A stretch of DNA of 63,589 nt, filler included, from Sluysia triapertura (Eukaryota), in assembly GCA_046118255.1 (NCBI GenBank). It is 4 parts of 4 records of this genome, joined end to end, with 100 filler letters (N's around TTAATTAATTAA, not from the genome) between each part and the next. Parts side by side here need not be neighbours in the genome. Positions count along the whole stretch, not along the records: positions 26,824 to 51,241 come from JBJNIA010191828.1; 3 more parts are not named here. The stretch is one strand, 5' to 3'. A model generated the notes under the pieces. The model worked only from the letters and a program-made list of their open reading frames with translations, had not been told where the DNA came from and did not search any database. Position numbers and translations under genes: made by a program. Shown here piece by piece: positions 11,280 to 46,963 of this stretch (within the stretch, counting starts at the first letter, position 1; each line of letters starts with the position of its first letter).

Positions 11280-11280
<1 letters not shown>

Positions 11281-16262: not shown

Positions 16263-18047
16263 CAAAATGCAATCGACGATCTGAATAAGTGTTCATAAAT
16301 TTGTCCAAATCGTTTTCCACATGTTTAATTTTACGTTTTTCGGCGTTTTTATATAATTTTTATATAAAATTTAAATGGTATTGAGTATTTTTGTTCATTT
16401 AATTTAATTTTTAATCTTTTCACAGTCCTCATGACTGTAACCTTTAATAAGATAAGTAATCGTAGGTTTGTTTCAAAAAAACATAAACTTTATTATTTCG
16501 TAAAGTAACAAATAACAAAGTTAAAAGTTTCTATTGTAATTATTTTCATTGTATAACAATATTTCATGAGATCAATAAATTCCTACGAAAACAATGATAT
16601 ATCCATTTTTATCATTAGTAACAACATTTAAAAAATTATTCCATAAATTATTTTAAAAAGTTATTCCATAAATATGTTCAAATTTGTAATCAAATCAAAC
16701 GGTATTCTTTCCAGTTTCAAATTCCGAGATATTTGAAGTTCACTTGAAATTGTCCGTACTATTTGAACTCGATTTGTTTCCGTACCATTTAAATATACAA
16801 TACTGAGAGAGCACGATTATTTTTTTGTCTTATCTCCAGATATTCATCAGTGGAGATATTATTGCACCATTTTTACATTGATAATGACAGAACTTTCTAC
16901 TTTAGATAACATTCCAACCATGTAATTCATTTATTTCATTCTTCATTATATTGAAATTCGAAAAATTCAATCAAAATAAATAATTAATTGAAATATAGAG
17001 TATCATTTTTAACCTTTCGTCTACCAAAGAAGTATGTATGAATTTTTCATTAGACAGTTTTATTTAATACATTTTATTTATTCTGTACATCATTATCGCA
17101 ATTCTCATGCATCATATTACTAGGAAATAACTCGATAATAAGTTGAATATTCCTCGTGTAGTGTCAATTTAAAAATATAACAATTTTTAATTATTTACCG
17201 ATTCCAATTCACAACGAATTATTTAAACAAAAATTCAGGATATACTAATACTACAAATATTGTGAAAATATGTCACTATATCTATCATAACAAGCATCTC
17301 TTAGATCACAAATAATGCATCTATTGTTAGCATGTTAATGAGATAAAGTCTTTTTAAAATGTCAGTCTAATATTTGGAATTTGAAATTATTATTATTATT
17401 CAATTGATAATCTTTATTATTTACATTATTTTCTCTTTGTACAAAGTACAAATACTAAAACTCGATTGATTAGATAAATGTTTTTTGGTTTTGATAATAT
17501 TATGTTAATGATTATTTATTTACCTTGAAATTAAAGGTTAATTTTTTATCTCTATCTTTTACGTTAATATTTTTGTTGTTTTGAACTTTAGAATTTACTT
17601 AGCAAATTAAATCATCCAATCACATCTTTCTGAGGCTTTTCTATTTTTATTATTATTATAATTATAATGATAATCATTGTAAAGTTAGCTTTTTATTTTA
17701 TCTGACTCTAGTGATTTCTTCGATCCCATTGTACAATTTCAGAATGTTGTCAAAAATAATTATATAAAATCTTAATTTATTGATTATTTGCCGTTAGTTA
17801 CACAACGAAGTCATTGCTATCGTTTTTTGTTAAACTATTGATGTATGTCCATCAATAGAAATTAGATATCTATGATTTGGAGTCACACGATACGTCGCAC
17901 AACGTTGTGTCAAGGTCAAATATGGTTGTGCATAATAAATTATAAATTTAGCAAACATTTGTGTTTTGTTTCTTGGCTAATAGACTCAACGGAATTAAAA
18001 CTGAGTATTTAAAGGTTTTTTATTTCAACAATAATGATGCGCATTAA

Positions 18048-18504
18048 CCCTTTCACCAATTGGTTCCACTCGTATTTCTGCAAGTTTCTCAGGCTAAGCA
18101 GGTCATGTTACATATTGTTTTAGAGGATTAAATGAGGACAATGTTTTGCATAATCGTTTCTGTTTTTAAAGTGTGTGCACAAAGTTACTTCAATAATATG
18201 CCACCATTTTGTGAGAAAAATATTATAAAGTCTAAAGTTATTATTACTTTTGTTAGAAGATGACATATTGTTTTAGAACATTCCACACTATATTATACTT
18301 TGATAGAGAATACTAAATTTACCAATTTTCACATTTTATGCTATTTTATTGAAAATTCATGAAAAACTATACATTTTTATTAATTTTGAAATTAACACTA
18401 ACACATGTGGCGCCAGCCTTTTAATGGCTTTTCTCACACATATTTCATATGATCTCTCAAATAATTTTATGTTCACAAAAATGCGCTCACTGGCGGTTAA
18501 AGGG
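18048..18504. mobile_element. piggyBac-like non-autonomous element
   Basis: TTAA|CCCTTTCACC ... GGTTAAAGGG termini; right TTAA degenerate. Confidence 0.5.
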
Positions 18505-18886
18505 TAGAAAGTAGAAAGGCGAATTACATATTTTCACTTGTGATAACTAGTATTTATCATAAAATGTTAATAAATTTTTAATTATGACAATAATTTTATC
18601 TTTCATAACAATAATTTTTAATTGTGCATGTTAAGAAATATGACTGATAATGTCTGAAATAAGCAATATGAAGTAGTACCTGTAATTTAAATAAATGGTA
18701 CTATAAAACGAATATTTGATTGTATGTAGAAATAAATGAATGAATATAAATATATGTAGCTAAAAAATTGTATGATGATAAATACTAAAATATTGAATTT
18801 AATAATATGTAATTAATTTTGTTTCATAAATTTGAATATAGAATAAAATAAATAAATTTAATAATAAATTATATAATCCATGCATA

Positions 18887-19030
18887 CAGTAACTACTCTC
18901 TTATCCTCCAAAAACGGGACTATGAAAAAAGGTAGCGGTTTCTAAAAAATGGCGGCTTTTTGAGTAAAAAATTAAAAATTAGACATTCATTTTCGCAAAA
19001 ATAAATTGGCGGATTCCAGAAAATGGCGTA
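18887..19030. mobile_element. pogo/Tigger-like terminal fragment
   Basis: TA|CAGTAACTACTCTC start with repeated GGCGG subterminal motifs; no partner end found. Confidence 0.3.
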
Positions 19031-20480: not shown

Positions 20481-20593
20481 CTGAAATAAAAATCAATAAT
20501 TGACTAAAAGCTTCCATTAATTATTAAAAATTTGTGATTGTTTAAAAAAAAGTATAAAAAATTTTCCATTTCGATAAATAAAAAAATAATCAC

Positions 20594-21800
20594 TTGTTTT
20601 ATATGTATAAAAAACAATTTGAGTTTAAACTTAAGGCGTTAACGAAAATATTTGATGAAATGATTTTTAGGAACACGATTGATGATATAATATTCGGTAA
20701 CAGATGTTCTTTTGCTTATACTGTAGGTGAAGCATATTTAAACAAATATAGGAGTGAAATACATGTACCTCGTGTAAAATTAACTCTTACTAAAATGGAG
20801 TCTATTAGTAATTTAGTGGGTGCAATATTGTTATGTTCTCAGGTATACGTAAGTCTACTTAGACAAATACAAAACGTTCTTAATGAAGTCAACGATCAAT
20901 TTATTCTCCAACAACATTATTATCTCCGAAAAGATTTTCTGAAACAAGCATCAAATGAAATTTGTCTTGTTATTAGCGATGAACCTAAATTCGTGCTTAT
21001 TCCGGCACTCTATCATAATAAAAAATCAAGTAATGACTACTTTAATCATTTAAAAAAATTAAATCAATTATGCCTTTGGGTTAACTCTGTTCAGAATTGG
21101 CGAGATAATATATTTGAAACATCAACTTAAGATACTGAAAAGAATTACAACATGCAATTGAAATGTCACGAATTAAATAAAGATTATATTTATATTAAAG
21201 GTCAATCATTTCAAAATACGCCATGCTACAGAATAATTAGTTCAGTATTCTGTACTAAAGCAATCCAATTTAATAGACAATCTTATCAGTTAAATTCAAG
21301 TCTAATACGTGAATTAAACAGAAAATTATACAATGGTTCAAAAAGATGCAATGATACAGCAAACCGTCATGAGAACAAAGATCATCGTGAAGTTAATTAT
21401 AAAGAATGATGTGCACTTACCCAGCTGATCTAAGTGGATTGTGCTTGAAATACAGGATTACTTGCAGCTATGCACACAACGTTTATCAATTAGAAGATGC
21501 AATATTGTTTGGCGTTTCGTGTTTGTCACAAAACACTAGATTGGAACAGTTTTTGCTTTCACTTAATGTCCAGTTGGCTGGTGATCGGATGGTAAAGAAG
21601 ATCGAGCAACCTTGTCAAAACAACGATGATATTACAAGCGAGGTAAACAATTACAAATTTTATAATAAAACTTATTTATACATGATTTTTATTTCAGATG
21701 TCAAGATCCTGAACATGGTCGGAGAAGCTATTTGGAAAAATTTAAAGTTCATAGAAATTAAAACTAATTTTACTTTCGTTATTTTTTGTTATTTAAAATT
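20594..21800 (+). pseudogene. CCCH zinc-finger cargo gene, copy 1
   Basis: Three abutting ORFs; C-x9-C-x6-C-x3-H at 21412-21477; candidate intron 21643-21697. Confidence 0.7.
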
Positions 21801-21949
21801 AGTCGTTAATAATTACCTAAGACCTATAAAAGTAATTAAATCTTTACAGTTGTCTTTATTACTATGTAAACTCCTAGCCTTTTTCCCTGAGAAAAAAGCA
21901 TGTTTTAAGTGGTCATATTGATAATTATCGTCTTCTACTGAATCGTAGC

Positions 21950-22417: not shown

Positions 22418-24077
22418 CTTGAACAATGATATTGTGATATAATATCATTGTTATAATATTGATTGTAAGAAATATATTTATACGATTTCTAATAACAATT
22501 AATTAAATATGATCTTGATACATTTTACTATTTATTTTAATAATAATACTATTTTAAATAACTTACATTATTATTAATTTGAATCGTAAGTGTCGTTAAG
22601 ATTAATTTTGATTCAAATTTTTAAAACATTTGAGTAAATAAAATTATTTTTAACGATAAAATTGTTACTGATCTTCATATTTTTAAGATAAATTTTTAAC
22701 ATTTTATTGATAAAATATTAAACTATACGTTAAATTATTGTTATCAATTGTGATAAATTACATTATTACATAAATAATTGTTTAATATAAATAAATTATT
22801 GTTTAGTTCATTTTCATTTTTAAACTAAGGGATTTGGAATAAAGTTACAAAATCAAATCGAAGTCATATAAGTTTCTATAATAAAATAGAATCATTGTAA
22901 CATAAATAAAGTATTAAAATAAAGTCTCAAAGTTGAATAACAATGAAGTATAATTGTACGGAATTATTCAAGATATAGTCAGACAATAATAGGAGTTTAA
23001 CAAAATACGACTCTAAAGAATAAATTAGTTACTGAGCACATCTATCTCGAATAGCTGAGACGAGTATTCGAATTCATACCTTCTCATAAAGTAAATATAA
23101 TCTACTAATATAGAGCATAGATATCACTTGTAAAATAAATTAGTAAAAGAAGTGTACGTAAACAATAATAATTTAGCCTATCGAATTTTGATTTACATTT
23201 CCCAGACAAAATTTTAAAGTTTAAATCATATAAAGTATACATAACTATTCATTAGCTGTAAATCAGAGAAGCTTCAACAAAATTACTGCCAGAAATAAAG
23301 AGTTCGTTTAAAAACATTCATCTACTCAATAACAAAAATTTAACATATATATATAATAAACTAAATTTGATAATATACAGATTACAGACGAGTGAAATTA
23401 GAGCTAGTTTGAAACTAGAATTACAGAAACAAACGAAACAAACTGAGGAATAAAATTTTTAAATATTTAAGTAGATGAAGGACAGGTAAGAAAGCTTATT
23501 ATATTATTAACCAAGAGCATTCACCTTAAGTGAAGCGACTTATATTTAAGCAACAACGCATTTTACTTTATTTGAAGCAAAGAATTTAACCAAACATTTT
23601 AAGCAAAGAAACTTAATTTCGTAATTATTACATTTTGGTCAGAATTTCATAGTTATTAATCCGAATCGGGAATCATAAATAGTTATACAATTATCGCACA
23701 ATTAAGTTAAACACATATTTGCCGCAATTCAAAAATACAAAAAAATTTAACTTCATAATGATCTTCACATTAATCAACCGAAACTATTTTTGTAACAATT
23801 ATTGTTTCGTGAAGCACGTATTATTGATCTTCATTATTTTAACGTTCAGGTTTTTTATTTAGACGTTGCAGTTATTGAAAAATTGAAGACTTGTCCAAAT
23901 ATAAGTTAATTAACAGAAATGACTCCATTTAGGTTGATCAATGGCTTTATAGGAAAATTTTAATAAATATATTCTTAAAAAATGTGATCAATCGATTTTT
24001 CACATAAGTTATTGATTGTAGAAGCATTTTTTGTTTAAGAATTACAAAAACCAGTTATTAAAACATTAAACACTAAC

Positions 24078-24468
24078 AATGCAATCTTCATAAGAATCAC
24101 ATTTCTTTTGGATTGATAAACAATGTTTAGGAATTAAAGAGTCACGTTGATATACAATACCAGCTCGACATAGAACAGGACATGATATATCAGTGAGAGG
24201 TTTCTGGTAAGCACACGTTTCTTGTAATCGAATATGGTTTGGATTCTTATTTGCTGGATCATTTGGTTGTAAAAGTAGTGGTGCAGGACAAGCACATCGA
24301 AATTTTACAGCTCTATTGATTGGATTTGAAGAAAAGATAAGAGAAGGACCTGCAATAACTCCAAGATCAATTGGTAATGTGGACACACAAAGATGACTGC
24401 ATGGTTTTAAGGCACCATTGCTTTGAGAACAAGGGTGAATTCGTTCTATTGCGCCGACTGAAGACAAT
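24078..24468 (-). CDS. exon of an LDL-receptor-related (LRP-like) protein: EGF-like module plus LDL-A module
   Basis: HPCSQSNG..CSHLC..FRCACP..TC then C..C..CLSIQKKCDSYEDC; TTATTAG acceptor and GTTAGT donor on the minus strand. Confidence 0.85.
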
Positions 24469-25040
24469 CTAATAAAATATATAAAATAAAAAAATATTAA
24501 TAAAATGATAGTAAAAAAATTAGTTGGCATAAATAAACATATTTGTTATTTCGAATGTGGTCTTATTTCCTCCAAATTCAAAATTTAATATTTTACCAAA
24601 AAAAATGAATAATGATTTCATAGATAAACAATGAATTCAATAATAGAGTTACAAACATTTCAAATTCAATTAGATTTAAAATGCTCACGTTTTCTAAGAT
24701 TGAACTGTGCAAAATTTTAAGGATTATCATATGAAAAATCACAACAAAATGTGTTTGGTGGCATAAATAAAAGAAATATGGTTTTAAATATACATATAGA
24801 AATCTACCTGTAAATAGTGTTACCATAAAACTAGAAGCACTCAAAGTTTACATACGTTTATTAATATGTTTCATCTAATAATATCTAATAATAAAAAATA
24901 CTAAGATCACATTATAGAACCGATTTAAAATATAGAAATCAAAAAGAGCATCAACTAAATTAAGAACTTTAAAATATGTTGAGAAGATAAAAGGAATATA
25001 AGAAAGCTTGTGTTGACATTTAAAGAATCTATGTATTTTC

Positions 25041-25399: not shown

Positions 25400-26400
25400 A
25401 TGGTGTTCACAGAGAGATAGCCACAAGATTATTATTACGAATTTTTGATTATGATCAAAGATGGTAATTGCATGACTTATTAAAAGTAATTCTTATGATA
25501 TGCGGTGATTGTAGTCAACGAACGTTGCCTATTACAATAAATGATTTTCTAATAAATATGCATCAACCATTAAACTATTTAGATATTAGATTAAATTGAG
25601 AGAATTATCTAAAGAATAAGGAATTAATGTTTGCGTTTGTCATACAAGGAACACCTACGTGCAAGAAAAAGCAAGAAGTTCATCCTCTCTGTGAAATTGT
25701 TAAAGAAAAAAGAATAAAAACATATTTTATCGAAAGAAGTACTAATTCCCATGATAGTTTTAGTATCTTTAATGTGGAATCAGAAAAACTCCATGTTCCC
25801 GAACAAATGAATTTGCACCAAATGTTGCTAATCAAAAATTTATCATCAATAACTGACAACAATCTGGATATTTCTGTCTACATCATAAAGATATTAGAAG
25901 GGTATATCGAATTTATAGTAGACATCGATACTGTTAGAACGAACAATATAGTCAAGTTGTCAACACCATCCACAAGAATAATGAAATTCCAAACATATAA
26001 AGTTGTTCGAGCAAATAATTGACATTCTTGTTATTTTAAAACCGCTATGTGTCCTTATATCACAATACTGAATGCTAAATGTTCCAGATATGGTAAGCAA
26101 TGTATGTACGCACATAATGTTGCCGAATTAAAAAACAAATTCATTCGATCATCTTAGTAGAATTCACAACCTGATAAGTGAATTGACTTCAAACCAAATT
26201 CATCAAAAGAATGATCGTAATATTAAAGTAATTAACGTTTATTTACTTTATAAAACTATGATTTTCATTTCCTTTATTTACCTTATTTTCAATTATTTAG
26301 GAAACAAATAAAACAGATGGCAAGGTACACTCAGAAAAAAATAAACTTTGATAACTTAAATTCATACTTAAATGTTGTAAACTCTAGAGAAATAAAGTTT
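25400..26400 (+). pseudogene. CCCH zinc-finger cargo gene, copy 2
   Basis: Reading through stops gives YFKTAMCPYITILNAKCSRYGKQCMYAHNVAEL (finger at 26050-26115); candidate intron 26228-26300. Confidence 0.7.
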
Positions 26401-26723: not shown

Positions 26724-26823
26724 NNNNNNNNNNNNNNNNNNNNNNNNNNNNNNNNNNNNNNNNNNNNTTAATTAATTAANNNNNNNNNNNNNNNNNNNNN
26801 NNNNNNNNNNNNNNNNNNNNNNN
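26724..26823. other. artificial contig linker
   Basis: N44-TTAATTAATTAA-N44. Confidence 0.98.
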
Positions 26824-28910
26824 TATATTGCATATATTTTGAACCATTGATAATAGAAAAGCCTTCAATAATAGATTATATTTTTAAATGCAAACAATCG
26901 ATTCAATATACCACAGTAATGACGTTTACACTTTATAATAAGTCAGTAACAATAGATTTCATGGAGATTTTTAAGAAAAAAGATGTAAATAAAACAATAA
27001 GTACACTATTTCCTACTGAATTAAGTAAGCATCCAGATAAGAATATAAGTAAGAAAATAAGTAAGGATACAAAATATTTTTATAATTGCACTTTTAATCT
27101 TTACCATAATCTATATGTTATTCACTATTTATTACATAATTACTTGTAATAGGGTACCAAGTATGATCTTATCAATTACGTACGCGTCGCAGAGAATTTA
27201 CAAATCGAAATACTTGGATTTTTATAATTTCGACACAGAAGTTCAAATTAAGGTAACTAAAAATATTAAAGCATACAGTACATATGTATCAATCCAGCAA
27301 GACTTAATTTTAGTATATGTGAATTACATAGACATGTTTTACCAAATACAGAGTATCCAGTAACAATCTGCAAGGACTATTTACTTTCAGAAGATATACA
27401 TATAATAATATTTATCCAGCATCAGGCTAAAACTATTAAACAACTTCATTTTGCTATACAGGGAATCAAAGAACCAACTACAATTATAGATACTTTAAAA
27501 AAGGATCCGTCAATAGTTATTCTAGTAATCTCAGCTAAATTATTTATTATTGCATTAATAATAACCTTACTAATGATTATGATGTTCCTTATGAATAAAT
27601 GTAAGTATACTAATACTAATTGAAATAACGACAACGATAATCATCATTATTATAATGATGATTCAAAGATATTATGCTCTTCCTCCAGGACTGCCATCAC
27701 CAATATATGAACACAATACATTTAAGACTACCTACATATTATAGTGGATTCCAAATATCATCAGTATTATTATGTATTAGTTTAATAACAACCAAAGCCT
27801 CTTCCGAAGTAACCATAAAGAAATTAAGGAAACAAATTATTCTACAATAATATACAAATTACTATTCAAGCTAAGACCAACATAATAATAGTCGTAGCTA
27901 AGCAAATAGATGAGTAATTAGTTAGTCTATCTATTAATTGCTGTTTCAATAAGTTTTGTACTACTTCCTCAACACCAATTAAAGCTTCAATATACTGGGT
28001 AGTAGCTTGTGAAGATCCATTAAAATCCCAATTATACCAAGTCAAAATAACAATGGAATTAAATGATAGAGTAATACTATATTATTGGATTGAAACCTTG
28101 CCTTATGTATTCTACGATAAATTCAGTAAGCAATGGTTAAACTGTTCCATAACGGCATTAGCTAATGAAATCGACTTAATTAAGGTAGCAAATAATTCAA
28201 TTATAATAAGATATGAAACTGATAAAGAAACTATTACAGAATTAATTCCACCGAAACACACTACTATATTGAATTATTATCCTGAGTCGATCTTTTCAAC
28301 AATTTATGCATGGATTCTCAAAGCTAATGAATCATTAAAAGCGAATGACTGGTGAATCACAAAACCATACATTTTCATTATACCCATTGTTAAGGAAACT
28401 ACAATTATTAAACCAGATAAGAATATGCTAAGTAAATCAATACAAGTTAAGAAAACAATATCAATAGCTAGGAATATAACTAACATACCTAATAAAATTA
28501 ATAAAATCAGTTTAATTAATTCGAAAATCTCCAAACACAATGTTGACACTAATGAACTTAAAATCAACATTCATCTTTGCATTATCATATTCATGCTTTA
28601 TGCTTTTCTTGCAATTAATCTTGTGACTGAAGCTACAAAAATGTATAAAGGAATACCTCGTAGACTGACACATGCAATTAAAGTATAGGATTAAACAATA
28701 TATAGAAAAGTTACGTGTGATCGATGTTGATGGTTTTATTTCTGTCCAACCGGTCACCTAACTTTACAGAATATTCTTTAATATATTTCATATTTTTTAC
28801 CATGTACATAAATTAGGACCATAATGTAGTACTTTAATTAATTAATTAACTAACTAACTAACATTAAAATATTATTACTTTATTATATTTATATTTTTCT
28901 TTTTCAGTTA

Positions 28911-29366
28911 ATGTATTTTCACCGCTGCTCAATTTGTCAACGTTCCATTCATAAACACTTCATAAAAACATATCCTTGTTTTCACAAATTTCACTTCAAA
29001 TGTATTATTAATTTATTTCATTACACTATCACAGAATATATGAACTGCCCTTTGTGCAGAACATCAGTGAAAGAAATTTATACTTTTTATAAAGGAAAAC
29101 AGCAATTTACATATACATTAGAAAAGGTTCCATTATATCTTCACGATCAACACGTAGAAGTTCAGGAGGTAGTGATTAATCACCCTGAGCATTTTAAGAA
29201 AAATAATAAACATTCATTAGCGATACCGCCTCCAAATTTTCCTTCTGGGTTGTTAAAGTCCCAGAAGCATAATAGACGTCGTCAAATAAGACGTCTTTAC
29301 AAAAGAGCGGGTTTATACAATAAGGATAAAATAATTAATCCATTTATTAAGAAAAATCGTAGTTAA
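28911..29366 (+). CDS. RING-H2 finger protein with basic C-terminus (element accessory ORF)
   Basis: C-x2-C-x13-C-x-H-x2-H-x2-C-x14-C-x2-C; intact 151-aa ORF; splice acceptor at 28907; AATAAA near 29413. Confidence 0.8.
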   Translation: MYFHRCSICQRSIHKHFIKTYPCFHKFHFKCIINLFHYTITEYMNCPLCRTSVKEIYTFYKGKQQFTYTLEKVPLYLHDQHVEVQEVVINHPEHFKKNNKHSLAIPPPNFPSGLLKSQKHNRRRQIRRLYKRAGLYNKDKIINPFIKKNRS

Positions 29367-29515
29367 GGTTTTTATTTTTTTTACTCCAAAATCATATAAG
29401 GTACTATAATTAAATAAATAAAAATGTAAAATATTTAAAATTAAACTAACGTTTTATTTCATTTTTATGTGCTCTTCACTTCTTTTATGTATATTATTTT
29501 ATTTAGAACTGTAAC

Positions 29516-30660
29516 ATGAATGCACAGGCAAAAATTATAAATAATATTACATCTTTTTACAACAGTATAGACCGTTATTGTGGTCAGAACGACTCCCCTT
29601 TGTCTTTCCTTAAACCAAATCTAACACCTAACATACTTAAGAATGAAATGAATATACCATTTATCATTCATCTTTTCCGAGTGGATAAATTAGAAGCGCC
29701 TTTAGTGGTAAACCTCTTACAAGGTTACCCTGAAAATAACCAAGCAATATTAATCGCGGCAGCAAGATGAAATATTAAAGTAACAATGTATATAGACTTC
29801 AACCCCTTGTAAATAAGACTCCAAAGTTACTCATCGCATCAAATAATCAAAATGTGCATGATGCCACACCACAAAACTTATCACATCACAGAAACCATCA
29901 AGCCGAGAATACGAATTAAAAACTACTTGACAATTGATCACAAAATAAAGGAAAAAGATTTAGATAATGCGAAAGATATAAGTGATATTAGAAAATTCTG
30001 GGATCTTTCTACCCAGAACTCATAATTAAAACTTTAGCCATACTACACGGTTGGTTGACAGGTGTTGTAAATCTGACCTTCACCAACCTCGTATCTCAAA
30101 ACTCATTGAATTTAATTTTAATTTGCTATACACTGTTGTCCCGAAATCATTCACGTGTAAACAACACATGAAGGACTCCATTTCTATTTTCGATATCTTA
30201 ATAAACAAAGATGAGTCGTTCCTACCACAAATAATTAAAATTAATCATACAGATAGTTCTATCTCATCTCAAAATGATTCTCCTAAAAATAATAAAATCA
30301 TTCCTTTTTCTTCATCTTCTTTTTTACATTTACATGACAATACCTCTTGCTGCACAAATAACAATTGTAACATTTTCAATTTTTCAAAACCGATACCGCA
30401 TGCAGAACACATCACACGCCTAAAAAATCAATCCAGGAAAAGAAAGACATCAGAGTCGACACCAGATGCAGATGAACTGAAAGCAGTGGACTTCAACCTG
30501 ATATTCAAATCCAGTACACAACGTGGACTTGGATGACGATGACATCCAATCTCCGGAAATGGATATTAAGGATGCTGAAGATAATGACTACTATTTTTTG
30601 TCTTCACTACTATCAGACGATCAATTCTTCAGAATGGATGAGGTCATCGACCTTATATAA
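29516..30660 (+). pseudogene. fragmented accessory ORF with NLS-like and acidic C-terminus
   Basis: ORFs 29516-29770 and 30051-30536 plus frameshifted DLDDDDIQSPEMD..* tail; RKRK motif; acceptor at 29506. Confidence 0.5.
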
Positions 30661-32699
30661 AATTGGAGACCAATTTTCCCGGTCGGGGTAGCTCTTATTG
30701 TAATAAGAGTATATTGATATTCAGTGTATTGATATTTATAACAATGTGTAATATAACAGTCAGTGACTAAAGTGATTAAATATTAATAAATAATGGTTGT
30801 GAGAATATTGATATTTATAACAATGATTGATAACATTGTGATATTTATTATTCTGATTATAACTTTGTTTTAATTTGGAATTTTAATAAATTTTAATAAA
30901 ATGAATTTACATAAATTTTATTAGAATACTGTAACAATTTAATGTAAGAATTTTTATTTATTTAACTTTACCAATTAATTTTTATTTTATTTTATTTCTA
31001 AATCTAGCGTCACTAAATTATTAATTTTAAATTTTGTTTAAATTTTTAATTTTTACTTTGTTTTAGTCAGACTAAAACATGTATATAAAGGTCTACTCTT
31101 TTAACTTGAAACACACACAGAAAATTTTACAAGATTCTTAAGACAGAGTTTTACGAAAGTTTTTTTGGGTTTCAGCTAATATATAGATAATTCTACGGAA
31201 ATTTTTCAACTACCCATAAGTGACGTTAGTTTAATAATTTTAAGGCTGATATAATCTTTATATCTTCAGTAAAATATACTTAAAATCTGTATTTAGAATT
31301 TAGATCTTATAAAGATCCATGGCAAAATCATTTTTTAAAATAATAATCGCTGAGTATAACTAACTAACAATAGTTAGTTAAAGTAAATTTTTTAATTACT
31401 ATTATTGTCAATATTATTTGTCAATTTTATATTTTGTAATTAGATAATAAAAAGATTCTTTTGTTACGATTTTTTTAATTTACATATTTACAAAATCCAT
31501 TAAATTCATAATATTTGTAGCTTTCAAGAATCTAGAATTTAATTCTAGAAAGTAAATTTGCATTTAATGATTCCGTATAAGTGTAAAGATGGGTTCTCAC
31601 CTAACCTACGATGCAAATAAACCTGGAGAGAGTTCGCCTAACAGAAAACGACTTAAGTCTGAATGACGACCGATTTACTGTGCAAAAATCGAAATGAACA
31701 AGTGTCAAGATAAGGATCACCTAAGGAGAATTTTAGTCTATTTAGAATGTTGTAATTGATAATAAATTTAACTGATTTTGAGTTAGCCTTTTTAGACTTG
31801 TTAATGAAATATTAAATTAGCCGTTTACGGTCTAATTATTGAAAACTGTGATGTAAATTTTATAATATTAATCTAGTCTTGTTACGGTCTAGCGTTTGAC
31901 AATGATTTTAATAATAATTTCAAAACAAATTTTAAGTAAAGAAAGTTTTATTTACCACAAAGAATACTCAAAATTATAATTCAACACAAAATATTAGGAA
32001 GAATTTATATTACAGACAATGATTTTATTCAACTTAAATTCCGAAGAATTTAGTTTTATTATTTTAGACTGATTTTTACTTATCCGTTTACGGGATAAGC
32101 AAAGTTAAAAAATAGTTTAAGTAGAAATTTACTTCTCCCTTTTTACGGTGAGAAGGTCATACAACTTAATAAATATAAACTTGCCACTTTCATGGATATC
32201 TGGTGGAAGATTTTGAAGATTAGTTACCAACTGGCTATTAAAATAAAATTGTGTTAAATCTGCAAAAGTCAGTGACTTTTATACACAATTTTCTTTCAAC
32301 GGCCATGTTGTTTGTTATTTTGAAAAACTGGCACATATAATTAATTTACTTTAATTAAACAAAATTTATAAATATTACTTTCAATAAGGATTTTTAAATA
32401 TTAAGAAATAATGATTTTTAATGATTTTTAAATATTTCTTTTAATGATTTTTTAAATATATTTCTTTATAATAATAATTTTTTATATCATAATAAATAAT
32501 AAATTAAATGTAAAATAAATCATAATAAAAATCATAATAAAGTAAATAATAACTAAATAAATTTACACAATAAAGTAAATTATCAACAGTTTAGGCAGTT
32601 AACAATTGATTTCTCACATAAGTTTCACACACCCAAATCTCACAGATATAAATTTGTATAAATCTGTGATCGGAGAACTTTTACTTCCGCTATCCCATT

Positions 32700-33560
32700 A
32701 TGATTTTAGTAATTTTTTCATTATCTCCAAAAAGTTCACTTTTAACAACGTTCCCCGACCACTTGTATAATTTAAGAAAATTTTGATTGCATTTATTTTT
32801 TTCATTTCGTTCATAATTTAAGATTTATATTTATGTTTGGATTGCCAAAGTATGAAAAGTGTGGAATTAGAAGTATGACAAGAGGAGAATGGAGCACTGT
32901 TGGAAGATGAAAACAAATAAAGTTATGTTGACAGCTGAAGAATATTTGAAATTAGAAAGACCTTTAAAAGACCTGAGGTTGGTTTTGAATTGGTGAGACA
33001 CCTTTGAATTTCTGAATCTGAGATCATCTAAGACCTTATTAAACTTTAAGAATGTTTGAGACCTCGATAAGCATTTAATATCTTTGAGTAACCTTACAAG
33101 CTAGTTGAAATCTTTAAAATATTTGAGAAATAAAATCATTGTTGCTAATATTAAAAATAAGTTTATGAATGGTTTGTTTGAGAATAAAAACCTTAAAGAT
33201 CTTTCATTAGAAAATCGGGTGCAAAAAACCGAAAATCAATTAAATTCTAAAAACTAAAATTAAATTCATTATTTTCGTGTATGTTAATAGTACTAATGAT
33301 TGTTATTTTGACGTGGAAAGTAATTTAAGTAAAAATAAATGATCATAAATCTTTTTTTTGTGTTTCGTACATAATAAAGTCTGGCAGACCGTACCATATA
33401 AATGTCAAAATTATTATTGTCGGTTTAATTCCCAAAGAATGATGTCTGTGAAAGAATGTTTGATTGTAAATCTTAAGGGCGATTGAATAATGAAAAGTAT
33501 AAAAGTACTTGGAAATTTTATTAAGGGTATCGCTCAAAAAATATGTTCCGGTCCTAATTC
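32700..33560 (-). pseudogene. leucine-rich-repeat gene relic
   Basis: Periodic F.GL..L-like peptides: FSNERSLRFL, FKDFN*L, NAYRGLKH, KFKGVS, SFKGLSNF. Confidence 0.5.
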
Positions 33561-35539
33561 CATGCCTGAATAAAGTTTTTTGTTAAGTTATACTTTATAA
33601 TTTCACTAATGATATTAGACCCTTTTTTGTCATTATAAAAGGAATTTTCCTTTATTCTACATAAATATTTTAAGAATTCCCTATTTATTTAAAATCATTT
33701 TTTGAAATTCCCTATAAAATTATTTTGGAAGATTATTATAAATAGTAATAATAAAAAGTAGTAATTGCATTTTTATTTGTCTGTGTTGCATCATTGTATT
33801 ATTAACATTATTTTAAAATTATTGATAATTTTGAGATTTAGCCACTTTGTATTAGTATTAAAATAAAAACTGTTAGTAAACAATGTGTAACTGATATTGT
33901 AATTATTAAATTATTGAGTTGGTGTTATTAATTTAAATTGACACAGGTAATATTTTGGTTTTAATACATAAGTAAATGTAATATCTGATATGTGATGAGA
34001 TGTTTTATTATGTGTAATATTTTATAAGATTGATATTTTATAATTATTTTATAATTATTTGGACATTGTATGATTTAAAATGTTTTAATCATTGGCACGA
34101 ATAATTATTGAAATTATATTTTAAAATAGATTTTTGAATAATTTAGTTTAAATAATTGTAAATAATTAATTGCATTCAAATAAATATAAATATAAACTAA
34201 CTGAATTTAATTAGAAAAATACAATCAATAATTCTATGATCATAAAACTAGTATATAAACTAGACACATTCTTTATAGAGTTAAAAATACAAAAAAGCAA
34301 AAAACTATTAATCAATGAATCTCGTTGTCTCTCAAGCAGTATTTCTTCGATCTTCGAATATCGATCGTCACAACAATTGTGAAATTCTTAAAAATACCTA
34401 ACCAGCTCTTTCAATCGAATTTGAATTATTGTTAGTTTTTATATATAGATTGTGAAGACAAAATCAAATAAAATTTTCTTTTTACAGATCAGTTAATTAC
34501 AAAATCTTAATTAAAATCTCATCAACAAGATTATTACAGTTTAATTAATAATCTTAGTAATTCAATATTAATATTATTCGTGACCGTCATTTTGTAGATA
34601 AAAGCATTATTGAATTTTAAATTTTAATATAATCTAATGTTTGGTAAATTTTATATGAAAAACTATTCTAAAATTATAGTTATTGATCCCTTTAATTGGA
34701 TCAAAAGTAACTTATCTCTAAAATTAAGTTTGATAAAATTACTCTTTCTCGCAGGTTCTAGTTACACAGGACCTTAATAAAATCAAATTAACAATCTCGC
34801 GAATACGCGGAACATTAACAAGCAGATAAATAGTTTTAAAATCTTATTAACTCACCAGAAGGCAGAAAAAGAATCAACACATCCCACTGGGATAAACTTT
34901 AGTGACAATTGCATAATTGGTAAATTAACCTCAATCATCATTTTTATTTACGTTCTTCAAAATCCTACGACTAGCCCTAACATGTAAGACTATAAACGTA
35001 AGTGAACTCACTGTTAATTTTTCTTTTTGATTATTACACAAAGTAATCTTCCAAATATTATTGCCAAAATAAGAGAATTTGTGATAATTTAAATTTGATG
35101 TGTGAATATTGAATTTATTGGGATTTCATTAAGTAAACTGATCTGTTTTTGACTTACTGTTATTAACAATATTAAAGACGCAACATAATTTTTGGTGCCC
35201 TCAGTACTTTAACTTGATAATTATTTATAAATTATTTAAGTTTTGGTTTATTTTTACACGTAACACTAAAAATATCAAACAATTACACAATCGCTTACCG
35301 ACTTAGCACACTAACAAAACCACTAAAACTTAACAATGAAATTTCTATCTTTCTATCTTATTTTTTTCCTTCTTTTAACTCGCATTTCATTTCTTTCCAC
35401 ACTTTTGCCAACAGGAATCTCATATCTTTTTCTTTGAAATATTCTCTACTATTATTGCGGTTTCTCAGTTTATTTATTGTTTGAATGCTCTTATTTTCGA
35501 GGGAAATTTGATTTACAAAAAAAATTTATCGCACAAGGT

Positions 35540-36260
35540 CGTTTTGGATTCATTCACTGTTACTATATCGTTTTTGTTTACATTATCAACCAGAATACAA
35601 TGACTAGCTTGAATTAAATACAAATGATGAAAGTATTTGATATTCAAAGATTCGAAAAAATCTAATTTATGACATACTGCATCGTAAGATGTAGTTATAT
35701 CTATCGTCAATATAAATAGTAGCAGATACAAATAAAATTTAGTTTTCTTAAATTTAGTCAGAATTTTAACTCAAAAAGAAAAATTAGACGATCAAATAAA
35801 TTTAGGCAATGGGAATGCTAAGCATAATGAATTTAAAGTTGTAATTGTATTTTTGCAAGATATCAAGAAGAGGTCCAATGTTAGATACCATGTAATGATA
35901 ATGAAATAATGAATTTAGAGTCAAGTAATATCATCAAACTATTACGAAATTTAGAAACAAGAGTACAGGTTGATCTACCACGTAACCTAAATGTCATGAT
36001 GAATATCGTTGAAGTAACCATCGAGCTAGCATAAGACATTGAAAAAAATCAAGGCGTATCGTTTAATACCGACGTAACTATGATTTCGAAGACGAGCAAC
36101 CTTAGTGCAGATAACGCTACCTCTGGACAGAATAGACCAGTTACAAGTAAGAGAATCATTTTTCTCTTTCATTTTATTGCTGCAGTTGTCATATTATGTG
36201 CTTTTTATGTCTACGAATTTTTCATTCTTCATAATTTGTTAATTAATATTACACAATTAG
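35540..36260 (+). pseudogene. LRR-LRRCT-stalk-TM gene relic
   Basis: IINQNTMTSLN, LYLSS, HNEF..CNC....C*IP (LRRCT-like), S/T stalk, TM IIFLFHFIAAVVILCAFYVY. Confidence 0.5.
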
Positions 36261-36949
36261 TTGATAATTTCGTTTATTTCATTAAATGTTATATCATCAA
36301 TGTTAATTCGTTAAAAGTATTTTTACTAATGACAATAATGGTTATAATTATAAGTATGGTTGAAAATCACACAAAAATAACGCACATCACAAAATATTTA
36401 AGAATAAACACTAAAAATATAAAACATAGATACTACACCAGCAAAACATCAAACACCAAAATAATCGTACAATTGATCAGTTCTTAATAACAATGAAATT
36501 TCTATAAAACAATTTCTTTCTTATTTAACACTCTTTTTACGAGTTCACACGATTATTTCGATCAATAAAGAACGATATTCTGTAATTAATTCGAAATCAA
36601 AACGAAGAATCAACAATTAACAAGTACCAACGAAAAACATATCAAATTTCTCTGAACACGAAAAAGTAGTGCTACAGCACTAAGATATTATTCAAACACA
36701 AGATGATGAAATCTAAAAGTTAAAGTCGAATATTTAAATGAAGAAATAAAAAGCATTAATCATTTGAAGAAAATTATTAGTGTGAAATTATAATAAATTT
36801 TTCGAAATTTTATTATAATTTCAATATATATAGGCTACTAAATTTAGTAGCTTTCATAATTAATTTATAATTCTACCCACAATCAATTTATTTGTATACT
36901 TATCAACAGTTTTAGTATTAATCCTTAATAAAGTTATGAAATAAATAAA

Positions 36950-37690
36950 GATGTTATAATATTGATTTTTAATAAAGTTATATCTCTAATACATGATATA
37001 AATAAGATTAACATAATCTTGAATTTTAACCATGCAAATGTGAATAACGATAGTAATATCCTAATTTGTAACGAAATGATTGTAATTGAAATTCTAATTT
37101 TATTAAATAGAGGTAAAGTAGTCTCAAAGTTGAATAAAGTAGAATTAGACAAATTTATAAACTTATTTTATAAACGTGAACTACTTATGAACTCTAATAA
37201 ATTGCACGTTGAGAAGGATACACGTCTTTCTTATAGCTTAAATGCAGAAACATCGATCTTAATATTTAACAACCTGAATATATATAAAGTAATATTTCTT
37301 TTTAGAAGTTTTACTCAGATGAAGTAAATTACTTAACCAAAATCACAACTATGGAAATCAGCATCGGCAGAAGTAGAATTTTATACAAGATCAAAGCCTA
37401 TCATATCATCTACTTAATCCCATATATTACAAACACAACATACCAATTCACATTACCAAAATTGGAATAGTTTGGTTATAGAACTAGTATCTACCAATTT
37501 ACACCTAAATGATTTACCTATGTACCCTTACTTAGAAGTGTACACTTCTCATAGATCATACATCCATCGAATCTTTTTCTCTATTTGTTTTTACAAAAAA
37601 GTAGACTTTACAATTGTTATTTATATCGTTCAAGTTATAAATTCTTGTGGTCTTGTCTTTTCATTTTTTCAGAGTTTATTAATATAAATT
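36950..37690 (+). pseudogene. LRR-TM gene relic
   Basis: FINLFYKRELLMNSNKLHVEKDT, IFNNLN, terminal hydrophobic segment. Confidence 0.5.
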
Positions 37691-38759
37691 GTGTTGTGGT
37701 TTTAAAAAATTAAATAAAAATTGTATATTTAATCATTTTACAAATTTCAATAATGTGATAATTTATTATTTTCGAATTTTAAATCAAATGAAATGTTTAC
37801 TAAAATGCTTAATAAACCAATCTTACCAATCTTATATCAAACTATATACAATAAATATTCCCATCTTTCATTAAAATTTAAAAAATTTATCACAATAAAT
37901 AACATTTTTCTTAACAAATATTATATAATATCTATAATAAGACTAGGATAGTAGGCGAACTAATTGTATTAACTATTTTATTGGTGAGTATAGACTTAAT
38001 TTTCATAACCCTTCCACCAATAATAATTGCGTTAGCACTAAATAAATATAAAAGTAAATTTTCATTTTTTATTGAATTTCAGTCATTTTGTGTGAAAACT
38101 TGATATTAAGGATTTTTTAATTATATTGCTTAAAGGATTATTTGTGAAAAATATTATATTGCACAATAAGAGATAATTGAATTTTTAAGTTATTGTTTGG
38201 GATTTTACAAATAATTTATTATTTATAAATATATTTTCAGAATTATTAATTAATATTCGGACCGTGTTAGTTATATTAATTATTGTGGATATTTATAGTA
38301 CATATACATCAGTTTTCTTTACTTTTCGGATTAGTACATTTAATTTAATAATTTTAATTTTTTTTGACCTTAGAAAAAATTAATATACACAGTGGTTAGT
38401 GCACTTTTATTTGATTAATAATTAAAGTTTTCGGGCACTATTATAGTAACCAATATTGCATTTTGCTTTAGTACTGAACCTTTTTGAAGGATCATTTTTC
38501 TATTTATTAGAAAACACGGTATCGATTGGTGCATATTTCTGTTTGACTTTTAATTTCGTCAATTTCAAATTAATTTTAAATATATTGTAATTATTTTAAA
38601 AATTAAAACAAAATTGAAGACGCAACATTTACAGAAACTGTGCAATATAATATTGTTATGCTATGTTATGTAATTTATGTATGTTATGAAATGTTTTCGT
38701 TTTAAATTATAACATAGTGACGATCCAACTACGCTTAAGCCAATTATTGTGTTATTAAA

Positions 38760-38990
38760 TAATACTGGTTATGTAAAAGTGGCTATCCATTTTCGGGAAA
38801 ATGCCCCGATCATATTTACATGTGGAAAATGTTATAATATACACGAATTTACAACTAGTCAAATGATGCTAGTTCCAGTTGGTGCCTAGTTGCTGACTAA
38901 GATGACAAGGGAATTAAAGTTGTACGAATCAATACTCTCAAAGATGACACCAACATTTTTGGTATTGCCCCTAACTTCTGGCCCACCCCG
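38760..38990. mobile_element. Tc1-like terminal fragment
   Basis: ends AACTTCTGGCCCACCCCG|TA, a typical Tc1-superfamily TIR. Confidence 0.4.
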
Positions 38991-39599
38991 TATTTTAAAA
39001 TATCATACCGAGTTATAAAATCGAACTTTTCAACGGATTCTGTTTAAATAGAATCCCAAATAAGTTTTTATTATTAATAATCTCGCTATTACATAAGTTA
39101 AGGAATTTTGGAGCTTACTATTTTTAAATTTTATAATATTATAACATACAAAAGCTAGTAACTTTACAACGTCTTAACCATTTATTTCATCACAAATCAT
39201 TAAATTTGTAAATTAAATTCAAATATAATAGTGATGTAAATTGAATTTCTCTTAACATCTCCAATTTCAATGTCACGTATTTTTCCTTCAACATTCAATT
39301 TTGTAACACAGATACCAAAGTTAACAACTCCAAGCTGAACTACTTTAACACTATACAATAGTTAAAAAACTTCTAAAGTAATTGAAACATTCATAGCATC
39401 AGAAATACAAGAAATGCACTTATTCAACATGTAAGTAACAAACGAGCAGTAACTGTAAAAAGACACGAACACTTTTCACATTTACAGATCTTAGATAAAA
39501 CAAAAGTATATTCAAGAACTATAAGAATTAAGTTTCAAAATAATTTTAATTTCAAAGAAAACGTTTTGAAAATTTTATACTCTTAGAGTATACTTACTA

Positions 39600-40520
39600 T
39601 TTGATACATTAAAATCTATCAATAATAATGATGTCTTTGATGACAATATATTAGAAAATATTTTTTTTCAAACATTTAGAATAAATCAGAAAATTCTACC
39701 TTATTCCGATTATCTTAGTCATGTAATTGTAGAAGAAATTGTAGATGATACCGTGTCAAGTAAAAAGGTAACGCAGTTCAAAACTATGATGAATCAAAGT
39801 TATATTAAAAGGAAAAGTGATGTTCCTAATTTATAAAGATGATCATAATAAAAGAGAGATCGTATAATTATTATTTACCGTGACATGTTACGAAAATGAT
39901 TCACCTTTTCAAGTATTTTGTTTCCGAACCTCTAAGTGACAGATCATCAACGATGGGATTCCAATTGACTGTGAGAAATTATTATCCGAATGATTTACAT
40001 AAATTCAATTATATTCATTCTAATCAAAATACAGGAGATACAGAACCACACATTAACCTATGTCATTATAAAATGAGCCGATGTCTTTTTGGTACCTCAA
40101 ATACTGGCGAATGTCTTATCTATAGCCGACGCTGTATTTATTTTCATGGTCTCACAGATGCACAACATACTTTCGGTGACGGTCAGATATTCAACTATAA
40201 TTCTGAACGAATTGCAAACCTGTTGACTACATTAAGATTAAAGCCATTCCTAACAAGTTCTTCAATATTTAGTATTTCAAATGATGAGCTTTAAACAAAT
40301 TAAAACATTATAAAAAATGAAAATTTATTTTTGAAGGTAAATTATTATATTTTAAAAATTTTATTAGACTTTCATGATTATATTTTTATTTATTTTTTAA
40401 GAATTCCAATTAACGTGTGGAAGGTGACATATACAAACATTGACCATCAATTATTAATATATAACTTTTATATTTTTAAATGTCCTTTTATTGAATTAGC
40501 TTTATAATAACAAATATATA
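39600..40520 (+). pseudogene. CCCH zinc-finger cargo gene, copy 3
   Basis: HYKMSRCLFGTSNTGECLIYSRRCIYFH (finger at 40082-40147); candidate intron 40337-40401; followed by a PPT-like motif at 40555-40598. Confidence 0.7.
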
Positions 40521-41032
40521 TCCTAGGTCTTATTTTAATCGTTTAATTTTTAACGATATTACACCAATATCTCACTTTGCGTCGGGGTTACGTTCTTAAT
40601 AAACCATGTAAAGATCGAAGATAGGTTCCAGGGTTACGAAAATACTACTTTTTAAAAAGAAAATTGAACAAAGTAAACATTTAAAAAACAAAAATAATGT
40701 AAATTAATTGAAACTGAACTCTAAAATTAGCAAAACAAAAGAAAATTGCGTTGATTTTCAGTTAGAAAGAGAATACCCAAGTTTTGATGGCATGACACAA
40801 TTAGAAACAAAAGTGGTGCCATCTTTTAGAAGAAAAAGAAAATTAAAGACTCGAACCCAAACAACGCAACATCGAAAATTTAACGACGCACAGTGAAAAT
40901 TAGTACTAATTAAACAACGAAGCAACTTCGAAAAAATGCAAAACGTAACGACGCAAAGCGAGGTATTGCATGATAAATATTAAAAATGAAATGATTAAAG
41001 TTTATCTAAATAATAGTTATAATATTTCAATA

Positions 41033-41750
41033 ATGGATAAATATAAAACATTTTTTAATAATTTCAAAATCAAATTACCAAAGTATTCTTCAGCATAAAA
41101 CCTTAGAACTTACGTCAGAGAAGTAGAATCATAATATAATAGTCAAATGACCTCTTCTAAAATCTACGAACTAGCCGTTTCTTGTATGACTAGGATCTTA
41201 GGCTAACTCATTTATTGATCAGAGTAAGTTTAAGTATTAACAAAAACCCGACAATGTAAACCTCGGTGCATTCAGTACATGAATAATATTTTGAAAATTT
41301 TATTTTTATTTTACGAATTATTTAAATTGCTGTTCAGATAAACATGTTTCAAGTTAGACTAGCAAACGTAAAAGGAATGTATCATAAATTATATCAAAAT
41401 AAGTGGTTTTAAGTAACTATCGATTTTCTTTATGAACATGAATTAGATATACATGTGATTTTTGGGGCGATTCAGCGATCTTGCTTAGACACATTGCATC
41501 AAAAAGAAACTTGACGATTAAGATATTAAATAAAACAAGAGATATTACAAAAAAATGATGCACCAAATTCTAAACAATGTTGGAGATCAATTTATATGAC
41601 AGCGCTATATAAGGTTATACCTTATATAAATTTAAAAGACTGTAAACAAGAACTAAAAAATGCAATTTTAAAATTTTCAGTTGAGACAAGAGAAATCAAC
41701 TTTAAAAATGAGAGAAAATTCAAATTATACATTCTCAGAAAACACAAATA
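41033..41750 (+). mobile_element. gag-like relic
   Basis: MDKYKTFF..KLPKYSSA*NLRTYVREVE resembles a retrotransposon Gag N-terminus; many stops. Confidence 0.35.
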
Positions 41751-42429
41751 TAACCGAACTGCAAACTTAAATAAAAATTAGATATCAAAAACAAAAAATG
41801 TAATTTCTTTTATGTCATTTTATGTTATCTTCACTATTATTCATTTCCTTCTGCGAATAGTAGTCTTATTGATTTTGTTCTGAAGTCACTGCTTGATTTT
41901 TGTTCGTCGTGCAGGGAAGGACTGAATGGCACAATTGTGTACATTGGGACAGTGAGAATCTACCGGAGTTACAGTGTGAGCTGGAATCGGCAGCACTGGT
42001 TTAGTTGGCTAATTTTTCTTTGATGGAACTGTTAATGGTGGATACTAAAATGTTTCCTGTTGTTAACGAGTTCCCCCATTTACAAGAAGATGGAGTACGT
42101 GCGCACTATACCAAAGATATTAAACAATGGCTTGATAAAATATTTCCTGGAAGTTGGATTGAACGCCGAGGACCAATTTGACACCGCCTGATTTTTTTCT
42201 GTAAGTTCTAAAAAGCGCAGTTTATGCTAAAAAGCCTAGGACAATTGATCAACTAAAACAAAGTATTCAGCACGAATGGAGCCAAATTTCAGAGGAACCT
42301 TGTCAGAAAGTATATCGCAGTGTTGTCAAAAGAAGGTGGACATTTTAAATATTTGTAAATACTAAATATACATATTAAATTTGTCGTTTTTATTTAAGTT
42401 TGCGGTTCGGTTACTTTTGGGACACCTTG
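41751..42429 (+). mobile_element. Tc1/mariner (rosa/DD41D-like) deletion derivative, family A
   Basis: Transposase scraps VTV*AGI, FFFDGTVNG, QEDG..AH, WL...FPGSWIERRG, LTPPDFFL, VYAKKPRT; right TIR ...GGGACACCTTG|TA. Confidence 0.85.
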
Positions 42430-42554
42430 TATGTTTAGATATATTAATAATACATTAATAGGGACATTTCAGAAGAAAATATTTTCCTAAATTGAAATAA
42501 TTACATAATAAAATATTCCCCAAAAATGAGAAGGCTTGAAAATGTCTTACTTAC

Positions 42555-42814
42555 TCGTGAAACCTTTGAAACCGCTTGTTGATACAACTTTTTGAAAGCG
42601 AATAATATTCCAATATTTCGATACGCTTTCACGAAATTGTCTACATCTTCTAAATTCGATAAATCTTGACGTAGCTTTTGATAGTTCCAACAGCGAGTAC
42701 CGTTTATAGCATTCAAGGCGCTTTTATTTCTTGTGACAAACAAGCGCAAATCATGAACATATTTTATTATTTTTATAAATAGTTTCTCATTCATTAATTT
42801 CATTCCAAATGGAC
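42555..42814 (-). CDS. NCKAP1: exon of Nck-associated protein 1 (Nap1/Hem, WAVE complex)
   Basis: GPFGMKLMNEKL..LRLFV..VDNFVK..IGILFAFKKLYQQAV matches NCKAP1 GPYGMKFLSESL..VDSVLK..IGVILSFRSLAQEAL; TTCAG acceptor, GTAAGT donor. Confidence 0.85.
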
Positions 42815-46690: not shown

Positions 46691-46963
46691 ATGAAGCGAC
46701 GAGACTAGTAAACTATTTATCCATAATCATAGTTTAGGAATTCCGTAATTCTAACAAACAAATCAAGCTCTAACATAAATAAACAACGCATTCTCAACAT
46801 ATATGCAGCTCAATAAGCGTTATTCGGCTATTAAAACAAGTAAACAAGTAAGAACGCTTATTGATGCTACCCGGCTGTCGCGGAAGTTACTCAAAAACGC
46901 AAAAACATTAAACTTATTTGAGTTTTGTTAATTATTTATAATTTAATCTTTATTATTACTAAC

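Follow-up and report, generated by a model that had tools for sequence, protein, structure and literature searches.

The window analysed here is a 63,589-nucleotide (nt) stretch of Sluysia triapertura DNA (assembly GCA_046118255.1), in which positions 26824-51241 come from contig JBJNIA010191828.1. At the start of this contig, in 26824-30660, lies a train of open reading frames (ORFs), one of which encodes a RING-H2 protein. The train belongs to a real high-copy element that carries several accessory genes and a new small RING family; a role of the RING protein as a ubiquitin ligase is predicted from sequence. The stretch is best explained as a decayed copy of a high-copy repeat, namely as the 3' accessory-gene region of a cargo-bearing element of the long terminal repeat (LTR) type, Ty3/gypsy-like or Bel/Pao-like. 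We give this reading about an even chance, with the class of the element unproven. What we observed directly is the train of ORFs with its high copy depth, the family of the RING protein, the membrane-spanning segments and, in another copy, one link between the RING gene and the next ORF.

Accessory genes are the means by which retroviruses beat host defence. To our knowledge, few are known from invertebrate retroelements, and most of these are single ORFs. If our reading is true, a high-copy element with a row of genes that includes a RING ligase with an RNA-binding-like basic helix would be a concrete candidate for transposon-encoded counter-defence; this larger claim needs the class of the element to be fixed first. 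An earlier note on this DNA had described a Gypsy-like element with accessory genes between an integrase and a 3' LTR, akin to planarian Burro elements and part of one superfamily making up much of the window. The gene train is confirmed and proves to be of high copy, with a RING gene of a conserved family, whereas the integrase, the protease, the LTR, the Burro affinity and the single superfamily find no support.

A train of co-oriented reading frames

Seven stop-free frames of at least 100 codons occur in 26824-30660, all on the plus strand. Among 300 dinucleotide shuffles of this stretch none reached this number, with at most one such frame on the better strand, and two control stretches of equal length contained none. 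Four co-oriented ORFs start with ATG where the earlier note had placed them, at 28053 (100 amino acids, aa), 28425 (87 aa), 28911 (151 aa) and 29516 (84 aa, followed by broken frames up to 30660). The features of the train and its flanks are as follows.

26724-26823, no strand: artificial spacer; the element is cut here, and everything upstream (gag/pol, 5' end) is out of view
26826-27149, plus: frame that stays open over 107 codons, beginning at the contig start (the "integrase scraps" of the earlier note); no family, 12-nt tandem repeat inside
27061-27363, plus: frame in which 27076-27132 is predicted to span the membrane (19 residues, hydropathy 2.68)
27270-27623, plus: frame with four Cys, a C-terminal membrane-spanning segment (27513-27569; hydropathy 2.95) and a short basic tail; no family
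28053-28355, plus: intact ORF, 100 aa; no known family
28425-28688, plus: intact ORF, 87 aa, with a membrane-spanning segment (28569-28625; hydropathy 2.50, frame 28356/28425) and a basic tail
28840-28907, plus: predicted 3' splice acceptor, 3 nt ahead of the RING ATG, made up of repeats resembling branch points, a pyrimidine tract and CAG
28911-29366, plus: intact 151-aa RING-H2 protein (Pfam zf-RING_2) with a beta-hairpin, an Arg-rich helix and a C-terminal NPF motif
29367-29515, plus: spacer holding AATAAA twice (29413, 29417); 9 nt ahead of the following ATG is a TAG that resembles an acceptor but is weaker
29516-30660, plus: one or more broken ORFs, interrupted by stops and changes of frame, with a basic patch and then an acidic tail at the end; no family, copy depth far below that upstream
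30659-30697, plus: hairpin with an 8-bp stem (30659-30677), then a GTCGGGG motif (30682-30697); not a canonical polypurine tract
30699-30936, plus: candidate LTR, unproven and without a partner; TG...CA at its ends, poor in C, two AATAAA signals (30885, 30895)
31144-32223, no strand: non-coding segment of separately high depth; no Pfam match in six frames

The contig begins at 26824, and adjacency across the gap at 26724-26823 is not established. In a control for the membrane-spanning segments, 2-9% of shuffled ORFs from this train and a second one (see below) reached a hydropathy of 2.5, and none reached 2.9. The frame at 27270-27623 could be the remnant of an env-like protein or of a small membrane protein. 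For the membrane-anchored, Cys-containing region 27061-27623, no envelope family (F-type or gB-type) was matched in Pfam, PDB or a collection of 1.84 billion proteins. The single-sequence fold of the 28053 ORF is uninformative (predicted local distance difference test, pLDDT, 41). A suspected resemblance of this ORF to Tudor or chromo-barrel domains found no support in Pfam or PDB. The acceptor CAG before the RING gene ranks in the top 0.4% of 2382 YAG sites by pyrimidine content, and an AATAAA signal follows 47 nt past the RING stop codon.

The RING-H2 protein and its relatives

The RING-H2 gene reported at 28911 is confirmed: it encodes an intact protein of 151 aa that matches Pfam zf-RING_2 above the family cut-off (E 2.8e-6). 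The eight zinc ligands, C-C-C-H-H-C-C-C (C3H2C3), are invariant in eight aligned proteins. We found five relatives over the full family length, three (P0001, P0004 and P0006) by phmmer against the 1.84 billion proteins, and two (P0019 and P0020) by a profile search in which five of the nine matches were family members and four were generic RINGs. The relatives are unnamed proteins of 116-157 aa in single-member clusters; they come from Logan and ENA assemblies, where the contigs that encode them measure 0.6-2.4 kb. They share 29-32% identity with the window protein. Three of them are 70-77% alike to one another, the pattern expected of paralogous copies of a mobile family.

Common to the family is the part behind the RING, in which a lysine follows the finger and an RRRQ helix rich in Arg is accompanied by an N-x-F motif at the terminus. 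When this part of the five relatives is made into a profile, the window protein scores 35.6 bits, compared to at most 14.7 bits for 1000 shuffles. Judged by sequence, the window protein and its five relatives, none of them named, form a six-member RING family that is a solid new handle. The structure model (pLDDT 68; 74-88 over the RING) comprises the RING, a long beta-hairpin and a basic helix. We predict a small ubiquitin ligase of the nucleus that binds RNA or chromatin via the basic helix, with the E3 activity predicted from the family alone. No retroelement with a stand-alone accessory gene for a RING-H2 and Arg-rich protein was found in the literature searched; Repbase, Dfam and most subscription papers lay outside this scope and may hold one.

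The fold and feature neighbours of the RING protein are generic RINGs, many of them viral. The best fold matches are the RINGs of baculovirus CG30 and of the herpesvirus ICP0 type, and the feature-level (Atlas) neighbours of one relative are viral clusters, mostly Nucleocytoviricota and one Preplasmiviricota (0.90-0.92). These matches count in favour of a different explanation, in which the train is the cargo of another large mobile element: a Penelope/Terminon-like element, a Helitron-like rolling-circle element or an endogenous DNA virus (Polinton/adintovirus-like or giant-virus-like). Terminons are described as carrying trains of transmembrane (TM) and other ORFs (PMC5408684). On the other hand, the viral matches are confined to the generic RING. 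Scans of IMG/VR yielded no full-family relative, the result being either no match or generic RINGs (15 loci, in which the match covers the RING only), and a search of IMG/VR with the family motif gave zero matches. Similarly, a JGI scan for relatives found three generic RINGs only, and a word-indexed search with the RING alone found no match. Moreover, Pfam scans of the window ORFs revealed no Rep/helicase, polymerase or capsid, and an Rfam scan of the window found nothing real, including no hammerhead. Taking these results together with those on the 3' end given below, we consider cargo of another large element to be possible, if rather unlikely.

Copy depth

To estimate depth, we used contigs of one public run containing part of the stretch (share 0.42), aligned at 80% likeness. 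Summed contig depth, which is not equal to copy number, was 4,000-19,000 over 26824-29523, about 290-580 over 29524-31143 and 4,900-5,900 over 31144-32223, with 75-195 in bins of 35464-38163 and 12-21 on seven exact-match unique contigs. At each of 20 listed sites between 26916 and 29325, outside a skipped repeat, 19-69 different contigs carry another letter; at 29810, 30044, 30492 and 30796 the numbers are 5, 13, 3 and 2, respectively. About 14,100 of the 19,667 aligned contigs are less than 95% alike. The part up to the RING gene can thus safely be read as a diverged high-copy family with roughly hundreds of copies, and the last ORF and the candidate LTR as having far fewer. The multi-copy state expected of an interspersed Ty3/gypsy element is seen in both depth and contig counts of one run, which is possibly the window's own source, so that it speaks to copies within the genome and adds no independent support. 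The accessory ORFs are not single-copy host genes but lie within a high-copy repeat, and the RING protein belongs to a conserved family.

The depth profile drops about tenfold at 29500 and climbs again at 31144. Together with the nested remnants found throughout the window, this fits a mosaic of a high-copy repeat (26824-29500) with unrelated inserts of lower copy number, or else a multicopy host gene family, with no single element behind the train. Against such a mosaic, one 450-base contig from another copy bridges 29282-29724 (55 differences, 34 gap letters), and the order of the RING gene and the next ORF is therefore common to at least two copies and predates this locus. All frames lie on one strand, and there are no long introns of the kind seen in the nearby host gene Nckap1. 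We regard a mosaic or host gene family as quite improbable.

Search for integrase, protease and other pol genes

Pfam searches of 131 and 143 stop-free frames, and of the six frames with X at stops, gave no match to rve, Integrase_H2C2 or aspartyl proteases. The D[ST]G motif is absent from the plus strand of 26824-31000, and the protease-like scrap of the earlier note finds no support. A 1200-residue plus-strand frame compared by phmmer with the 1.84 billion proteins had 14 matches, all of them on the RING and none in residues 1-690, while an Atlas search with the claimed integrase frame returned no usable match. Nothing significant was found in PDB either, a result that carries no weight, since this route also missed the integrase that we used as a control.

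The control was a decayed gypsy integrase at 54.7-56 kb, which was detected through its zinc-binding domain (E 2e-10) together with a protease motif (E 0.01). Its rve catalytic core was missed by the same method; the absence of an rve match alone is thus weak evidence. Alignment of the train to the control integrase was no better than shuffles in eight of nine frame pairs, and the ninth pair aligns outside the integrase. More tellingly, the supposed integrase core contains a 12-nt tandem repeat (27038-27069) whose length differs among copies (a joint from 27069 to 27038 in contigs from other copies), followed by membrane-spanning segments. No integrase was found directly upstream of the accessory ORFs, where the earlier note had placed one, and the position of the train between an integrase and a 3' LTR is not supported, the LTR itself being without a partner and of low depth.

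These results bear on the earlier explanation as a whole, by which integrase and protease remnants begin at 26847 in a Burro-like element whose superfamily accounts for most of the window. In its favour, a stretch at 26946 resembles the start of an integrase core by eye (one motif match), a very decayed core could escape as that of the true control integrase did, and three CCCH fingers of the UNK/TIS11-like type in the window are related to one another. Still, the method that detects the control's zinc-binding domain and protease motif detects nothing here, no alignment to the control integrase itself exceeds shuffles, and the variable tandem repeat and membrane segments fill the supposed catalytic core. 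The two trains of the window share no protein homology, and Burro cargo is organised differently, being in frame within a polyprotein of 4,873 aa. We judge this explanation to be very improbable.

In the control region (54700-56000, minus strand), the aspartyl-protease-like motif lies downstream of the decayed integrase on the same strand, which is either an unusual order or a nested piece.

The 3' end of the train

The hairpin, the GTCGGGG motif and the TGT (30699) described after the last ORF are all present, with the TGT inside a palindrome. For the similar arrangement reported after the CCCH gene of the second train, the 6-bp hairpin (40555) and the motif (40581) are likewise in place, whereas the TGT lies 9 nt further on and the likeness of the motifs at 30682 and 40581 is within chance (local scores 19 and 22, compared to 17-24 for the best chance match in 25 random windows). 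Hairpins of equal strength are found 18 times in the window for the 8-bp class and 121 times for the 6-bp class. The region 30640-30710 folds into several hairpins (z -2.4 on the plus strand, -3.4 on the minus strand). If the train were cargo of another kind of large element, these hairpins would be a rolling-circle or recombination end rather than a polypurine tract and the start of an LTR. Such an end would agree with the folding of the region, with the palindromic TGT and with the lack of an LTR partner, a polypurine tract or pol.

If, as we prefer, the stretch is the 3' part of an LTR-type element, gag-pol would lie in unassembled DNA to the left of 26824, and the element would copy itself via a full-length RNA. 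Expression of the accessory genes would rely on spliced RNAs or on RNAs with their own 3' processing, as suggested by the strong acceptor before the RING gene and the AATAAA after it. The basic helix would direct the RING protein to RNA or chromatin, and the protein would disable a host factor that acts in silencing or RNA retention; the small membrane proteins would aid cell-to-cell spread. The 3'-most gene slot seems exchangeable among copies, since the depth there is about ten times lower. The last ORF is followed by a segment with TG...CA ends that has AATAAA 40-50 nt before its end, the candidate LTR. The non-coding segment at 31144-32223 could complete a longer terminal repeat or be a different repeat.

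Several results weigh against the LTR-type reading. No gag, protease, reverse transcriptase, RNase H or integrase linked to the train was found in 26824-31000, and pol could lie in the gap. The sequence before the TGT is no polypurine tract: the 14 nt before it are only half purines, and no run of 11 or more purines abuts it, so that the polypurine tract next to a 3' LTR in Ty3/gypsy elements is lacking, though it may have been lost by decay. Nowhere in the window does the candidate LTR have a partner, and its depth is the lowest of the element (289 in its bin, 2 contigs at 30796). An LTR should have at least the depth of the interior, and the low depth therefore counts against this segment unless, being AT-rich, it diverges below 80%; the proposed 3' LTR thus lacks support. 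Among the four ATG-started ORFs, the acceptor is strong before the RING gene, weak before 29516 and missing before 28053 and 28425. The nearest feature-level neighbours of the RING relative are DNA-virus clusters, which would fit a DNA-virus origin equally well. Finally, the depth data have the two limits noted above, the possible origin of the run and the difference between summed depth and copy number.

At its boldest, our reading would make the element a member of an undescribed lineage of invertebrate retroelements resembling complex retroviruses. In such a lineage, four to six accessory genes would follow pol as an exchangeable train and be spliced separately; they would include genes for spread-promoting membrane proteins and for an ancient RING-H2 ubiquitin ligase, whose Rev/Tat-like Arg-rich helix would couple the binding of element RNA to the destruction of a host silencing factor. 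The lineage would occur in several hosts, with hundreds of copies here. We think this version unlikely.

A third GTCGGGG site, followed by TGTT, is located on the minus strand at 32450-32761, facing the train. Behind it, 300 nt can be aligned to 62680-63000 with a better score than 100 mononucleotide shuffles reach; such shuffles do not fully control for composition. This region is possibly the LTR of another element.

Comparison with known elements

Extra ORFs after pol, including short proteins with two TM segments, are known in invertebrate LTR elements, as described in PMC5408684. The Vesta, Juno and TelKA elements of bdelloid rotifers covered there are similar to our element in having extra genes after pol and exchangeable cargo. 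In particular, ORF3 of Vesta4 is a Cys-containing protein of 220-230 aa with two TM segments, and the LTRs of these elements are 159-551 bp long with TG...CA ends, the candidate LTR here also being short with such ends. By contrast, the rotifer elements in that account typically carry one ORF3 (env, GDSL, DEDDy or TM), while here there are at least four to five separate genes, including a RING-H2 gene, and neither pol nor an LTR pair is in view. A role in cell-to-cell spread is proposed for the rotifer Vesta ORF3 and demonstrated for fly sORF2.

Burro/GYPSM1, a giant Ty3/gypsy element of planarians, is also present in many copies in an AT-rich invertebrate host, with ubiquitin-pathway cargo and accessory ORFs (PMC6431247). 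However, its cargo (AIR1, Smc, MATH, BIR, ankyrin, BCL2, SUMO-like and env) is described there as lying mostly inside one gag-env-pol ORF of 4,900-5,100 aa, in frame within a polyprotein given as 4,873 aa (see also PMC8532177 and PMC11410931). Here the cargo consists of separate short ORFs with their own ATG and stop, along with an acceptor and AATAAA. Moreover, none of the Burro cargo domains, MATH, BIR, ankyrin, BCL2 and SUMO-like included, was matched in Pfam among the ORFs of the train. The proposed Burro affinity is therefore not borne out: the element works like a cargo-bearing retroelement, its membership in Ty3/gypsy is unproven, and it does not share the cargo layout of Burro. In layout, the rotifer elements, the MDG1 group and Cer1 come nearer to the train.

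The MDG1 group, as described in bioRxiv 10.1101/2025.03.14.642691, has a small nuclear accessory protein (sORF1) and a small TM protein whose TM segment is followed by a basic patch (sORF2), as well as a polyA site between accessory ORFs; the 28425 ORF likewise has a TM segment and a basic tail. Unlike the train, the sORFs are upstream of gag and unspliced, and the MGxxxS/T start found in four of six sORF2 proteins is absent from 28425; the likeness is one of layout. The accessory regulator CERV of Cer1 in C. elegans is produced from a spliced mRNA of an LTR element, according to PMC10309623. By analogy, CERV is a possible functional parallel for the RING and Arg-rich protein; a role of the latter in RNA export would be a guess. 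Small viral RING E3 ligases (baculovirus CG30/PE38, herpesvirus ICP0 and giant-virus RING proteins) share the N-terminal RING fold with the window protein, while the hairpin, the Arg-rich helix and the NPF tail are common only to the five unnamed relatives. In a survey of env-carrying gypsy elements, flatworm members are reported to have the order gag-env-pol (PMC13524379); an env at the 3' end would thus not fit here if the host is a flatworm.

The second train and the CCCH genes

A second, unrelated-looking train of ORFs lies further along the contig.

35600-40598, plus: ORF train with a membrane ORF (36035) and a CCCH gene (39884-40294), ending in the second GTCGGGG motif

In 35600-40300, three frames of at least 100 codons occur on the plus strand, compared to at most one in shuffles (none of the 300 reached the observed number). 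The CCCH gene matches zf-CCCH_UNK (E 0.005), and an LRR-like remnant near 36932-37680, seen by eye, has no Pfam match. We compared 136 pairs of proteins taken from the two trains and the DNA around them; real homology was restricted to the three CCCH fingers, and no pair across the trains was homologous; one further pair at z 3.8 was a low-complexity match. This speaks against the single superfamily that had been proposed for the window. The three CCCH genes (20582-21921, 25600-26157 and 39884-40294) are decayed and apparently intronless, with related UNK/TIS11-like fingers and unrelated N-terminal parts. The third shows joints from other copies, and none of the three is inside the first train.

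Other features of the window

The window is AT-rich animal DNA, mostly of 20-30% GC, with three gaps of 100 bases filled by an identical artificial spacer. It contains host exons of Nckap1 (minus strand, 42504-47188), uroporphyrinogen decarboxylase (52959) and an EGF/LDL-receptor-like gene (24066-24545), and is also rich in decayed, nested remnants of mobile elements. On the minus strand, the scanned parts of 26824-42500 gave no match to the last ca. 190 residues of Nckap1. Both ORF trains may therefore lie antisense inside one large Nckap1 intron, or the missing exons may be too short or too diverged for detection. Several remnants with terminal inverted repeats, which we take to be Tc1/mariner-like, are found inside Nckap1 introns (41752-45782, 47400-48100 and 49420-49860).

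At 32764-33843, we observed an extremely deep non-coding repeat (summed depth 25,000-127,000, no Pfam match), which is probably a miniature inverted-repeat transposable element or a short interspersed nuclear element. The region 15091-16250 holds an intronless remnant of a rhodopsin-family gene with seven transmembrane segments (E 1.6e-4). Beside it is a broken intronless frame with a RING and a B-box-like part, TRIM-like by eye. Finally, a decayed non-LTR element with a C2H2 finger and a reverse transcriptase, presumably R2/NeSL-like by its layout, occupies 56064-59640 on the plus strand.

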